Source: Candidatus Hodarchaeota archaeon (lineage in GTDB: Archaea > Asgardarchaeota > Lokiarchaeia > Sigyniarchaeales > SOKP01). From it: a stretch of 47,999 nt of DNA. Made by a program: the position numbers and the translations under genes. The notes beneath the pieces are model-generated. The model ran no database searches. It saw only the letters and a program-made list of their open reading frames with translations, and had not been told where the DNA came from. The stretch spans positions 1-47,999 of the forward strand of contig JBHLJY010000018.1 of assembly GCA_048887225.1 (NCBI GenBank), in the 5' to 3' direction. Shown here one piece after another: positions 1,394 to 47,999 of the stretch (the first letter of the stretch is position 1; each line of letters begins with the position of its first letter).

Positions 1394-1612
1394 GTTAAAA
1401 ACCTCATTAAATTAATTTTGGATATTTATTAGAAAAATAAGTTATTCCTAAGTTGGATTTCTAAATTGCAATTACTAAATAATAAATTTAAAAATTAGCA
1501 CTAAGAAAATTAAAATTTAGCAACTTTATAATTATAAAAATTAAGTAATTTAACGTATATTCAATTAAAAAAAACCTTCTCAATATCAAATTCTAAGAAA
1601 AAAAGAAATTCC

Positions 1613-2020
1613 TTAACTAGGGCTTGTACATTGGTTAATAATCTCAAAAACTTGATTAACATCGATTTGATCTTCAGTCAAAAGAATAATAATTCTTTCC
1701 AAAATTTTTATTGAAAGCACGTAAAAATTATCAGAATGAATAATATTAAAATCTGGTTCGTGAATTCCGATTTCACCAGTTACTTCTACAGCAGACTCGT
1801 AAAGTTGAGAAATGTTTAAACTGATGCCCTCTTTATTGAATTCTTTTTCATTTATATAAGATTTCATGACTACTCCATGTAAAGAAGTAATTATTACGAA
1901 ATAGATTTTCGATCCTAGTTCTTTTACTAATTTATTCATAATTAGGTTGAGATCTAGGGTCATAGACATTATTAAATCAATATTGATAAAATAATTATTA
2001 TTTATAATTATAAATTCCAA
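1613..2020 (-). CDS. Roadblock/LC7- or profilin-like small protein (true start probably MSMTLD, ~1969)
   Basis: About 120 aa with a helix-beta-hairpin pattern (YFVIITSLHGVVMKS) and terminal strands plus helix. Confidence 0.55.
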   Translation of the reverse strand: MEFIIINNNYFINIDLIMSMTLDLNLIMNKLVKELGSKIYFVIITSLHGVVMKSYINEKEFNKEGISLNISQLYESAVEVTGEIGIHEPDFNIIHSDNFYVLSIKILERIIILLTEDQIDVNQVFEIINQCTSPS

Positions 2021-2074
2021 TTAATAAATAATTTTAGGTTAAAGTTGCATAATTCAAAATGAAGAGAAATAAAC

Positions 2075-2917
2075 ATGTACAAATACGGTGTCAATTTACT
2101 TTTATGGACTAGTAATTTTACAAATAACGATTTATATTTGTTAAAAAAAGTAAAAGAATACGGATATGACGTTGTAGAGATTCCAATTGTCAATCCCGAA
2201 GTTTTTCCTTCTGAGGATGTTAAAAACGAGTTGGAAAAAAATGATCTTGAGGTATTTGTATGCTATGGTTGTGAAAAAAATTCTGATATCGCTTCTTTAG
2301 ACGAGAATATAAGAGAAACAGGGATTAACCGCTTTAAACAAGCAATTGATCACGCATATGCTATAGGAGCTAAAAAAATTGGAGGTGTAGTATATAAAGC
2401 AGGTGGAATTTTTACAGGAAAGGCTCCTACGAAAGATGAATGGGAGTACTCAATTGCATCTATGAGAAAAGTGGCTAAATATGCTAAAAAATTCGGAATA
2501 TCTATAGGAGTGGAGCAAATTAATCGATATGAAACTTATTTTATTAACTCCGCTGAAGATGCAGTAAAGTATTGTAAAGACGTGGGTGTGCCCAATATGT
2601 TTGTATTGTTAGATACACATCATTTAATATTAGAAGAATTAAATTTATATAACGCAATTGTAAATACAGGAAAATATCTTGGTCATTTTCACACTTCTGA
2701 GAACAATCGAGGGATACCTGGTACAGGCTTAGTGGACTGGATGAATGTATACAGGGCTTTAAGAGATATAAATTATTCTGGTTGGTTGGTTATTGAATCT
2801 TTTTATATTGGTTTTGGAAACGTGTGGAAGCCGTTAGCACACACTCCCGAACAGCTAATCACCCAAGGATTAAATAACTTAAAATATATTGAAGAAAAGG
2901 TCGCAAATGAAAATTGA
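2075..2917 (+). CDS. D-psicose/D-tagatose 3-epimerase family (AP-endonuclease-2 TIM barrel)
   Basis: EQINRYETYFIN, LDTHH, GHFHTSENNRGIPGTG and IESF metal/catalytic motifs. Confidence 0.85.
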   Translation: MYKYGVNLLLWTSNFTNNDLYLLKKVKEYGYDVVEIPIVNPEVFPSEDVKNELEKNDLEVFVCYGCEKNSDIASLDENIRETGINRFKQAIDHAYAIGAKKIGGVVYKAGGIFTGKAPTKDEWEYSIASMRKVAKYAKKFGISIGVEQINRYETYFINSAEDAVKYCKDVGVPNMFVLLDTHHLILEELNLYNAIVNTGKYLGHFHTSENNRGIPGTGLVDWMNVYRALRDINYSGWLVIESFYIGFGNVWKPLAHTPEQLITQGLNNLKYIEEKVANEN

Positions 2918-44513: not shown

Positions 44514-45149
44514 ATGGTTAATATTGGTTTGCTTGGGGATATAAGTGTTGGAAAAACTTCCATATTACGTTTATTTGTCAAATATTTAAATAAGGGAGAT
44601 ATTGAAAAAGTAGAAGGCGGAAAGAAGTGTACCGTTGTTAAAACTGACTTTAGTGGAGAAGCTACGGTCCCAGGAGGTAAAAAAGAAGACACACTCAACG
44701 AAAAAGAAACGAAAACTATTCATCCAAACCGAGTCGTTTTCCGTGAAGATGATTCTAATAAGGCTCACACCTTATTCGCCCCAGGAGGGGATGCTAGACG
44801 TGCAGTCGTTAAAATGGGTATTATAACAATCTCTAGAATAGCTACTCAAATCATAGCTGTGTTTTCAATGGATCGCAAATTAACTACTCAACTTGAATTT
44901 TTCAATAATGTTAGATTCTTTCCAAGAAAAATTTATGCATGTATTAATAAAATTGATTTACTTGAAGGAAATAAAGCTCAAAAAGAGAAGAAAATCGCTG
45001 AAATAAAAAAAAAAATTACAGATTCGTTCCAAAAAAGGAAAATAGATATAGAGGAGATTTTTATAACATGCGGAGAAACTATTGAAGGATTTTCTGATAA
45101 CAATGATGCAGTGGCTCAAATGATATTAAAAATTTGTACAAGTGCTTAA
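44514..45149 (+). CDS. Atypical small GTPase (Ras/Arf/MglA-like)
   Basis: G1 GDISVGKTS, G4 NKID, G5-like TCG; G3 reads FAPGG instead of DxxG. Confidence 0.8.
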   Translation: MVNIGLLGDISVGKTSILRLFVKYLNKGDIEKVEGGKKCTVVKTDFSGEATVPGGKKEDTLNEKETKTIHPNRVVFREDDSNKAHTLFAPGGDARRAVVKMGIITISRIATQIIAVFSMDRKLTTQLEFFNNVRFFPRKIYACINKIDLLEGNKAQKEKKIAEIKKKITDSFQKRKIDIEEIFITCGETIEGFSDNNDAVAQMILKICTSA

Positions 45150-46170: not shown

Positions 46171-46575
46171 TTAGGAGTCAATTTTAAATTCGCTCTCTAA
46201 CAATTCCAAAATTTTATTAAATTGTTCATTAATAATACCATAATATGTAAACTTCCCTTTTTTCCACCCTCGAATTAAACTGGCTCCTTCAAGAATCCTT
46301 AAATGATGGGAAATCGAGGATTGAGATTTATCCAAAGCTGCTTCAAGTTCACAAACACATCTATCTTTTATTTTTAATATTTCAATTATTTTTAAACGCT
46401 CTTCGTTGCCTAAAGCATTAAAAAATTCAAATTTTTTTATAAAATTCCCTTGGAACTTTAAATTTTTTCCTAATTCATGTAAATTCTTGTAATATACATT
46501 CTCATCCGAGCATTCATCACAGCTACATAACATTTTTTTAATCTTTTCTAGACGTTTAGCTTTAATAAAAACCAC
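46171..46575 (-). CDS. ArsR/SmtB family transcriptional regulator
   Basis: ALGNEERLKI, CVCEL (alpha3 Cys pair) and SQSSISHHLRIL; extra N-terminal CSCDEC. Confidence 0.9.
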   Translation of the reverse strand: MVFIKAKRLEKIKKMLCSCDECSDENVYYKNLHELGKNLKFQGNFIKKFEFFNALGNEERLKIIEILKIKDRCVCELEAALDKSQSSISHHLRILEGASLIRGWKKGKFTYYGIINEQFNKILELLESEFKIDS

Positions 46576-46728: not shown

Positions 46729-47466
46729 ATGAATTTTTTAAAAGTGATTTGCATCATAAAAAATAAAAAATTAAAAGTAGGAGTAATTACAGATGGGAAA
46801 TATGGGGAGAGAGCTTTCACAAATATAAATAAAGTCTTTGATACCGAATGGATTGTAGTTCCAGAAATTCCCTCAAATATAATTCTTGATGACGAAATTG
46901 AGCTTGAAGTTCCTGAATGCGATGTTTATATATCTTATGTTCGACATCCTGATATTATTTTACAATTAGCAGAACTTGAAAAGCCATTAATATTGGGCGT
47001 CCTGCCTGGTGATGGGCTCCTTAGACAAGCCTTAAATATAAATCCTAACGTTGTTCATGCTCAGACAATGTGTTCTTTAGAAAATAATTCTGGAATACCT
47101 GAAATTGACGAATTTACGAAGTTTTTTGGCAAACCTATATACGTGCCAAATATAAGTAAGGAATTAATTATTAAAGATATTAGAGTTAAACGCTCTTCGC
47201 TATGCGGGTCATCTGAAGCCGGTGCAAAATTTTTATTAAATAAATCCTTGAACACCGAGATTCTTCAGAATTTTGCTTTAAGCGTATGTCACGAATGCCG
47301 AGCTCCTCGATTTGGTCGTACATGTGATAAAGAGGTTGCGGGAATTATTCACCTTAATTCTCTTTTTAATAGCTTTCCTCAAGAATTAACTAAAAAATTT
47401 GACCAGAATTTATTAACTTTCATTGAAAATATGAAAAATGAATATATAAGAAGAAAAAATAATTAA
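46729..47466 (+). CDS. DUF166-like Cys-containing protein
   Basis: GKYGERA, HPD, CSL, EF...FGKP, V.RSSLCGSS and C.ECRAPR...CDK...G.IH. Confidence 0.7.
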   Translation: MNFLKVICIIKNKKLKVGVITDGKYGERAFTNINKVFDTEWIVVPEIPSNIILDDEIELEVPECDVYISYVRHPDIILQLAELEKPLILGVLPGDGLLRQALNINPNVVHAQTMCSLENNSGIPEIDEFTKFFGKPIYVPNISKELIIKDIRVKRSSLCGSSEAGAKFLLNKSLNTEILQNFALSVCHECRAPRFGRTCDKEVAGIIHLNSLFNSFPQELTKKFDQNLLTFIENMKNEYIRRKNN

Positions 47467-47487
47467 AAAAAGGAGGTTGGAATTAAT

Positions 47488-47745
47488 ATGGATGATAGAA
47501 TCAGGGTATTAATAGGTTTGGCTACTGCTTATGTAGCAAAGTGTAAGCCTTGATTTAGTCATTTTGCAAATCAAGCTAAAGAAATCGGAATTAGAGATCA
47601 AGAAATCATAGATGTTGTAGAATTAGCAAAAAGAGTGAGGCAAGGGGCAATGAACCAAATGGATCAGTTTTTAACAAAAAAGATTAGCCTTATTAATAAC
47701 TCTGCTGATAACAATTCACAAACCAGGTGTGGATGTAGCCAATAA
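47488..47745 (+). CDS. AhpD/carboxymuconolactone decarboxylase-like selenoprotein candidate (CKPU; UGA at 47551-47553), 85 aa
   Basis: AGGAGGT SD; LIGLATAYVAKCKP-UGA-FSHFANQAKEIGIRDQEIIDVVELAKRVR fits the CMD pattern across the UGA; downstream SECIS. Confidence 0.85.
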
Positions 47746-47768
47746 ATTGGAAAAAACTTATAAAAATA

Positions 47769-47812
47769 TTTGAATGATATCTTTTAAAAAATGTTAGTAA
47801 AAGATTGACAAA
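47769..47812 (+). promoter_or_regulatory. Eukaryote-like SECIS element in the 3' UTR
   Basis: TTTG-A-ATGAT-ATCTTTTA-(AAAAATGTTAG)-TAAAAGAT-TGA-CAAA: AUGA/GA core, 8-bp upper helix, A-rich loop. Confidence 0.75.
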
Positions 47813-47999
47813 AGGATCGCATCCTATTAAAACTTTTAACAAAAAAAATTAAAAAAATCAAAAAGAAAAACTAAATATTAAATTAGGTTACTCTAAATGA
47901 ATGAATCTGAAATTGGAAAAAGTTCAGAAAGTAAAGATGTAGGAAGAAAAATTAGTTTTTTTGAGAAATTTCTTCCTGTATGGATTATATTATGCATGG

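Follow-up and report, generated by a model that had tools for sequence, protein, structure and literature searches.

A lokiSECIS-type element as the probable selenocysteine insertion sequence of an AhpD-like gene in a Candidatus Hodarchaeota archaeon

Introduction

In a 47,999-nt stretch of contig JBHLJY010000018.1 from a Candidatus Hodarchaeota archaeon (assembly GCA_048887225.1), hereafter referred to as the window, a hairpin at positions 47769-47812 very probably acts as the selenocysteine insertion sequence (SECIS) of the AhpD-like gene 47488-47745, with a fold that, accessory hairpin included, would reach to about position 47825; the probability of this reading, which is drawn from sequence comparison, is put at roughly 0.93. 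The element is of the type I 'lokiSECIS', or Asgard eSECIS-like, class of Lokiarchaeia-type Asgard archaea, a kind that has already been published, and it leaves the published picture of that class unchanged. What the locus adds is an unlisted host gene and a possible three-armed fold. The element would certify UGA 47551 as a sense codon and thereby yield an intact 85-residue redox protein, where routine annotation would split the gene or leave it out.

Position and fold of the element

The coordinates of the gene, the element and its parts, together with those of related elements elsewhere in the genome, are collected in Table 1. The element starts 24 nt past the TAA codon of the AhpD-like gene (about 25 nt in the initial annotation), and 221 nt lie between the in-frame TGA and the SECIS core. 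The gene that bounds the spacer downstream is represented by a fragment of 34 residues, for which no Pfam family was found.

Table 1. Coordinates of the gene, the element and related features (window positions unless a contig of this genome, G000, is named)
Feature	Position	Strand	Basis or remark
AhpD/CMD-like gene, 85 codons, C-K-P-U, C-terminal CGCS, TAA stop	47488-47745	+	translation with TGA=U
UGA as putative selenocysteine, codon 22	47551-47553	+	ortholog alignment
151-nt spacer holding the element	bounded by next gene, 47897-47998	+	ORF list; next gene truncated by contig end
lokiSECIS-type element	47769-47812	+	sequence reading of 46800-47999
C-stem, 5' strand UUUG	47769-47772	+	pairs with 47809-47812
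3-nt bulge A-A-U (A47773, A47774, U47775)	47773-47775	+	last two are the 'AU' of AUGA
Core, 5' half G-A-U	47776-47778	+	opposite 47808, 47807, 47806
Helix II, 5' strand AUCUUUUA	47779-47786	+	8/8 Watson-Crick pairs
Apical loop AAAAAUGUUAG, 11 nt	47787-47797	+	A-run first, AG last
Helix II, 3' strand UAAAAGAU	47798-47805	+	pairs with AUCUUUUA
Core, 3' half U-G-A	47806-47808	+	sequence reading
C-stem, 3' strand CAAA	47809-47812	+	covariation of innermost pairs
Accessory 3' hairpin (A)GGAU-CGC-AUCC(U)	47813-47825	+	directly after C-stem; predicted fold
Possible closing helix AAUA/UAUU	47765-47768 with 47825-47828	+	putative; four A-U pairs
selD element	L016 (G000:C2) 1425-1473		plain type I, 11-nt loop, no apical ministem
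hdrA-vhuD element	G000:C1:229417-229465	-
hdrA-vhuD element	G000:C1:307376-307424	-
hdrA-vhuD element	G000:C16:31028-31076	+
vhuU element	G000:C35:7752-7800		terminal UGA stop is the UGA of core AUGA
vhuU element	G000:C12:74511-74560		terminal UGA stop is the UGA of core AUGA
Sec-Sec ORF, 151 codons, HADUUAD	L017 (G000:C21) 1900-2355		SECIS 2354-2402
GDCCVxC-family ORF, at least 3 in-frame UGAs	L017 (G000:C21) 2444-2617		SECIS 2658-2706; NF041374, 40.5 bits

In the initial annotation, AUGAU (47774-47778) and UGAC (47806-47809) were read as the two sides of a UGAN/NGAN core, beneath a perfect 8-bp helix closing an 11-nt loop that starts with AAAAA and above a possible lower helix TTTG/CAAA. All of these coordinates, including those of the two lower strands, match the sequence, and eight of eight helix positions pair. 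The positions of the core and its tandem G-A pattern likewise stand. If UUUG/CAAA is formed, the partner of C47809 is G47772 and not U47775, which leaves a bulge of three nucleotides before G.A, A.G and U.U, and this is the canonical kink-turn layout instead of a four-pair 'quartet'. The kink-turn sequence pattern (C-stem, 3-nt bulge, tandem G.A/A.G) is matched exactly, and the C-stem pairs covary. Kink-turn rules, applied to the sequence, would make G47776.A47808 and A47777.G47807 sheared pairs, accompanied by U47778.U47806. AUGA is invariant across every alignment made of these elements, as are the core G and A of 47776-47778 in alignments that include 19 classical elements (see below); in the 3' half of the core, the A never varies among the 19 and the G seldom does, some hdrA-vhuD copies having AA instead.

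Thermodynamic prediction contributes little to the detection of the element. The unconstrained minimum free energy fold of 47746-47840 prefers other pairings and misses the hairpin (z -0.24), which in isolation is weak, at -2.8 kcal/mol (z -2.6). Folding energy is not a usable detector in a genome of approximately 30% G+C, and the hairpin is considered to lie beyond chance because of comparative evidence, not thermodynamics.

Recognition by covariance models

Two covariance models were employed. Model R1 was seeded with five elements taken from a simple hairpin scan through a perfect-helix filter, and R2 with 19 elements located behind SelD, VhuU, VhuD, PrxL and HdrA-VhuD genes of this and related genomes (the 19 classical elements), a seed that leaves out the window element and all its look-alikes. 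Because the R1 seed had been picked with the perfect-helix filter, R2 and its 19-element alignment were used for statistics. With filters off and both strands of the window (48 kb) searched, R2 yielded a single significant match, 47767-47815 (+), at 47.2 bits (E 4e-9); the runner-up reached 15.5 bits (E 0.28).

A search of the whole 3.27-Mb genome, which is 98% complete, with R1 gave 11 matches at E <= 0.016, followed by a gap to E of about 2. Each of the 11 is found at the 3' end of an open reading frame in which TGA occurs in frame at known Sec positions; placement relative to the end of the frame ranges from 20 nt inside it to 11 nt beyond, and the window match starts 21 nt past the stop. 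They follow selD, the AhpD-like gene, a Prx-like gene (GNWUAHC), two vhuU genes, one vhuD gene, three hdrA-vhuD pairs and, on contig C21, a Sec-Sec ORF and a GDCCVxC-family ORF; one model recovered every known family and three unlisted ones in the genome. The same architecture is shared by elements whose sequences differ, as behind selD, where the 3' region reads AUGA-A-UUUUAUGU-AAAAAUAUUAG-ACAUAAGA-U-GAC, with a loop equal to that of the window element and a helix that differs yet is complementary. In the hdrA-vhuD pairs, which carry two to four UGAs in hdrA and two in vhuD, a single element is present, located after vhuD and some 440-480 nt downstream of the hdrA stop, and one copy has the core variant AUGA_AA. 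In the vhuU copy on C12 the helix is 9 bp long, with one additional A, and the Sec-Sec ORF has neither a Pfam or NCBIfam family nor a canonical start codon. All 61 genomes sampled from the same family gave R1 matches, related genomes being non-independent samples.

A loose hairpin descriptor scan of the genome returned 331 matches, hundreds of them AU-rich hairpins; its top candidates outside the model matches (C13:4879, C9:20907 and C9:53144) are not located behind UGA-containing genes and were rejected. In another genome of the same genus (L057), the selD element is likewise plain type I, its 11-nt loop lacking an apical ministem.

The host gene, its orthologs and covariation

The frame that runs from ATG 47488 to TAA 47743-47745 contains a single in-frame TGA, and its product, MDDRIRV...AKCKPUFSHF...RCGCSQ (85 residues), matches Pfam CMD (PF02627, E 8.5e-5) and, weakly, several NCBIfam AhpD-type selenoprotein families. 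Clear homologs are few, with just three in 151 genomes of the same order, in Promethearchaeota and Hermodarchaeota MAGs; one carries the motif C-Q-P-U, and the others C-Q-Q-C and C-Q-N-C. The aligned proteins are conserved on either side of U and all end in CGCS or GCCS; opposite UGA 47551-47553, two orthologs have Cys and a third has UGA. The sole bacterial homolog recovered, from a Binatia bacterium MAG (L046, approximately 2001-2258), is a CxxC form that ends in CGCS.

In these orthologs, presence of the element goes with the selenocysteine codon. The CQPU ortholog, in a related Promethearchaeota MAG, is followed 31 nt past its stop by an R1 match of 41.3 bits, with the helix AUCCUUCA/UGAGGGAU, and no R1 match was found at the corresponding place of the CQQC and CQNC orthologs. 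With two Sec and two Cys archaeal orthologs in all, the element is kept in the Sec ortholog and gone from both Cys orthologs, a contrast of small numbers.

The helices of the element covary. Across the 19 classical elements, pairing holds in 97.9% of cells, against 34-44% in slid controls, and double changes are seen at each of the ten pairs; within helix II, double changes affect eight of eight pairs, with 98% paired, and helix II is 100% paired in 27 close relatives. The two innermost pairs of the C-stem also covary, as GC/UA/UG and as AU/CG/UA with one non-pair. Three comparisons that the initial annotation had proposed, namely with the 3' ends of the genome's other Sec genes (selD, hdrA-vhuD pairs, vhuD and vhuU), of covariation, and between Sec and Cys orthologs, have all come out in favor of its reading, and together with the models and the Sec machinery described below they support the suggestion that a 3' element recodes the UGA some 220 nt upstream.

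Selenocysteine machinery and a proposed mechanism

The genome encodes SepSecS (490 bits), a PSTK-like gene, SelD, with a UGA at the usual site, and SelB (aSelB, 249 bits; G000:C4:38949-39836). A tRNA-Sec with anticodon UCA was located by BLAST with the tRNA-Sec of a family member, at G000:C4:44554-44702 (+), approximately 75 nt upstream of SepSecS. It carries insertions of 29 nt in the D-arm (44571-44599) and of 30 nt in the T-loop (44659-44688), and their removal leaves a 90-nt UCA tRNA with a 9-bp acceptor stem that ARAGORN calls as tRNA-SeC; what has been published for the tRNA-Sec of Lokiarchaeota is a T-arm intron only. Neither the Rfam tRNA-Sec model nor ARAGORN at default settings detects a tRNA-Sec in this genome, and the Rfam cut-off is passed by none of ten genomes of the genus, probably because of the tRNA-Sec insertions. 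Two further searches were set aside: ARAGORN with lowered thresholds produced noise, such as the false call C4:48378-48472, and a scan for G+C islands was too noisy. Open reading frames with an L7Ae domain number only two in the genome, of 123 and 135 codons, neither of which is SBP2-like, and no SBP2-like protein is encoded.

In the mechanism proposed here, the mRNA element would fold as a kink-turn, with a short C-stem, a 3-nt bulge and G.A, A.G and U.U pairs, the G.A pairs presumably forming the kink, and this would be topped by the 8-bp helix and the A-rich 11-nt loop. Such a fold could mark the message for aSelB loaded with Sec-tRNASec, in such a way that UGA 47551-47553 would be decoded as selenocysteine and translation would terminate at the unambiguous UAA 47743-47745. 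SelB may be recruited directly or through a kink-turn binder; in a genome that lacks an SBP2-like protein, the one obvious candidate for the latter role is L7Ae.

Relationship to known SECIS types

As described by Mariotti et al. in 2016 (PMC4989117), lokiSECIS elements consist of AUGA, a 9-bp stem, an 11-nt loop and GA past the stem; the loop opens with five adenines and closes with an ultraconserved G that usually has an A before it (PMC4989117). Huang, Xiao & Zhang subsequently widened the class into two eSECIS-like models, type I and type II (2024, PMC11227280), for which a stem of 7-15 bp with at most two mismatches, an apical loop of 8-20 nt and GA or AA on the 3' side are required (PMC11227280). 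In the window element, AUGA occupies 47774-47777, and GA, which comes after the U.U position, occupies 47807-47808; eight Watson-Crick pairs and U.U amount to nine stem positions with one mismatch, and the 11-nt loop AAAAAUGUUAG starts with AAAAA and ends in AG. Like the published elements, which follow the stop at a distance of a few to tens of nucleotides, it lies shortly past a gene with a UGA at a Cys/Sec position, in a genome with archaeal Sec machinery, and is recognised by the leave-out model R2 with the score given above. Membership in the lokiSECIS class is also in keeping with features published in 2016, when hdrA-vhuD pairs with one common element, many genes with terminal UGA stops and the lack of SBP2 were described (PMC4989117), as was the overlap by which the vhuU stop UGA doubles as the core UGA (PMC4989117); single elements in hdrA-vhuD pairs and the vhuU overlap recur in the present genome. 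Three differences can be listed. The first stem position is U.U here rather than a Watson-Crick pair; selD is followed here by a type I element, whereas the usual published form for Asgard selD is type II; and the host gene, AhpD-like CxxU, falls outside the Asgard selenoprotein families, seven in number, that were listed in 2024 and again in a 2026 review. AhpD-like and GDCCVxC selenoproteins appear only as bacterial families in the 2024 survey and the 2026 review.

The initial annotation had called the element a eukaryote-type SECIS, and here resemblance has to be separated from membership. The resemblance holds: the AUGA...GA core, with tandem G.A pairs that would be sheared as in a kink-turn, the unpaired adenines atop helix II, and a position 3' of the coding sequence from which a UGA would be acted upon at a distance are all common to both. 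Membership in the eukaryotic family does not, as cmscan of 47300-47999 against Rfam returned no SECIS family at E <= 10. The helix comprises 8-9 positions, as compared with approximately 12-15 bp in eukaryotes, a shortness that the initial annotation had recognised and that is also stated by Mariotti et al. (PMC4989117); SBP2, the L7Ae-domain protein by which eukaryotic SECIS elements are read and for which the genome has no counterpart, has not been reported in the literature for any Asgard archaeon. A further difference concerns the base of the element, where a 3-nt bulge and a C-stem of 2-4 bp take the place of the larger internal loop and long helix I of eukaryotic elements. For these reasons, namely a helix of insufficient length, the lack of an Rfam match and the presence of no more than two small L7Ae-domain ORFs, the element falls outside the eukaryotic SECIS family (SECIS_1, RF00031), to which it bears resemblance only.

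The distinction that had been drawn from the methanococcal and bacterial types is borne out. SECIS elements of Methanococcales and Methanopyrus share with the window element the 3'-untranslated position and the archaeal machinery of PSTK, SepSecS and aSelB, but the element here is A+U-rich with a kink-turn core, and a GAA_A bulge between a G+C-rich stem of about 10 bp and a 3-bp G-C stem was not found in 47746-47896. The bacterial type has a SelB-binding hairpin in the coding sequence closely following the UGA, and the fold of 47548-47610 (z -0.74) shows none locally at such a distance. The kink-turns of box C/D RNAs comprise a C-stem, a 3-nt bulge, G.A and A.G pairs, and U.U at the third position. 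By its sequence, the core in the window would show the same order of C-stem, bulge, G.A, A.G and U.U as these and Kt-7-type kink-turns; it differs from box C/D RNAs in having no C'/D' boxes or guide regions, in its conserved A-rich loop, and in its occurrence only behind genes that contain a UGA.

Alternative explanations

This similarity leads to the alternative that survives best, improbable as it is: the hairpin could be a general L7Ae-binding kink-turn, or another 3'-end element involved in mRNA stability, termination or processing, which would do no more than tend to accompany such genes, with the UGA being recoded by other means. The core is indeed the generic motif of box C/D RNAs, with its G.A, A.G and U.U pairs, a homolog of L7Ae is encoded in the genome, at G000:C2:129701-129937, and archaeal L7Ae binds many kink-turns. 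A binding partner is known for no archaeal SECIS (PMC4989117). All 11 genome-wide matches, however, follow UGA-containing genes, with none behind ordinary genes; Cys orthologs of the AhpD-like gene are without it, no alternative recoding structure is seen past the UGA (z -0.74), and the A-rich loop and terminal AG are conserved beyond the needs of a bare kink-turn.

Less probable still is a SECIS of bacterial type, located in the coding sequence just past the UGA and inherited with a bacterial AhpD-like gene, which would render the 3' hairpin irrelevant. That AhpD-like CxxU selenoproteins are otherwise listed for bacteria only, and that the nearest NCBIfam families are bacterial, speaks for such an origin, but the 60 nt past the UGA fold no better than shuffled sequences and offer no hairpin at the bacterial position, SelB, SepSecS, the PSTK-like gene and tRNA-Sec are all of archaeal type, and the one bacterial homolog recovered has CxxC. 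The idea of a chance inverted repeat in an AT-rich spacer beside a pseudogene broken by a stop codon, to which the low G+C content, the 331 loose descriptor matches and the unremarkable energy z-score of the region might lend some color, is barely credible in view of the R2 E-value of the window element, its 73-90% identity, with compensatory changes, to elements behind unrelated selenoprotein genes elsewhere, and a reading frame that is conserved across the UGA in orthologs.

An accessory hairpin and a possible origin by copying

The SECIS reading of the element can be extended to its 3' flank. In folds with helix II constrained, each of 12 elements examined is predicted to have a hairpin of 4-6 bp that starts a few nucleotides past the C-stem's 3' strand, and in nine of the 12 a closing helix surrounds both arms to form a three-way junction; the closing helix of the window copy was not formed in the constrained fold. 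Among 27 aligned close relatives, four core pairs of the accessory hairpin are paired in at least 93%, and one of them exchanges AU, GC and UA. The best hairpin score in the 3' flank of 34 distinct elements from relatives is 12.1, as compared with 7.1 +/- 3.6 for shuffles. The accessory stems differ by gene type and are unrelated in sequence (AGGA/UCCU, AGGG/CCCU, AUGG/CCAU and ACC/GGU), and behind vhuD, selD and vhuU unrelated sequences fold a hairpin at the same place. Neither the accessory 3' hairpin nor the closing helix is mentioned in the text of PMC4989117 and PMC11227280. The small hairpin may stack on the very short C-stem and stabilise it.

The window element also belongs to a sequence subfamily. 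Over 59 nt, it is 73-90% identical (mean 81%) to the elements of Sec-Sec and GDCCVxC genes in this and related genomes, and 35-69% identical (mean 53%) to those behind classical genes; the exact AUCUUUUA/UAAAAGAU helix variant is also present in some relatives. These observations suggest a tentative proposal, to which somewhat less than an even chance is given: that the working unit is a three-armed RNA in place of the published hairpin, in which the hairpin on a C-stem of 2-4 bp is joined by the accessory arm and mostly by a closing helix, and that such a SECIS cassette was copied behind a Cys gene to create a new selenoprotein. Copying behind a Cys gene is suggested because the element subfamily is common to the Sec-Sec and GDCCVxC genes, and the route would be one that Huang et al. 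proposed in 2024 for other new families, whereby a former Cys gene takes up a SECIS that already existed (PMC11227280). If true, the locus would represent a datable example of the birth of a selenoprotein gene, with Cys orthologs still present in sister genomes.

Implications

Homology-driven surveys of the Asgard selenoproteome miss families that are easily found by a SECIS-first search. With regard to the evolution of the eukaryotic Sec system, the locus contributes a clean contrast between Sec and Cys orthologs, as well as evidence for the spread of Asgard SECIS elements, in near-identical copies, among genes that are not related.

Genomic surroundings

The AhpD-like gene is preceded by a divergent gene for an ArsR-family regulator (46171-46575, -) and, directly upstream, by a DUF166 gene in Cys form (46729-47466, +), which has a weak match to the NCBIfam 'DUF166 family (seleno)protein DfsP'. 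A conserved arsenic context for the AhpD-like gene is not claimed, as no arsenic genes were found within 2 kb of the Sec ortholog in the related MAG. In the Binatia bacterium MAG, the CxxC homolog is located approximately 0.7 kb downstream of a cation-diffusion-facilitator-like ORF, a neighbor that hints at a metal-related role for the family. On C21, the Sec-Sec and GDCCVxC ORFs come after an arsenite methyltransferase gene. Many related genomes also contain the Sec-Sec family together with its SECIS, and in one related genome (L066, G141:C53) three elements at 578-626, 1147-1195 and 1501-1549, all within 1 kb, are found behind two Sec-Sec-family genes, one of them with an AUGUU variant, and a GDCCVxC gene, in a dense selenoprotein operon.
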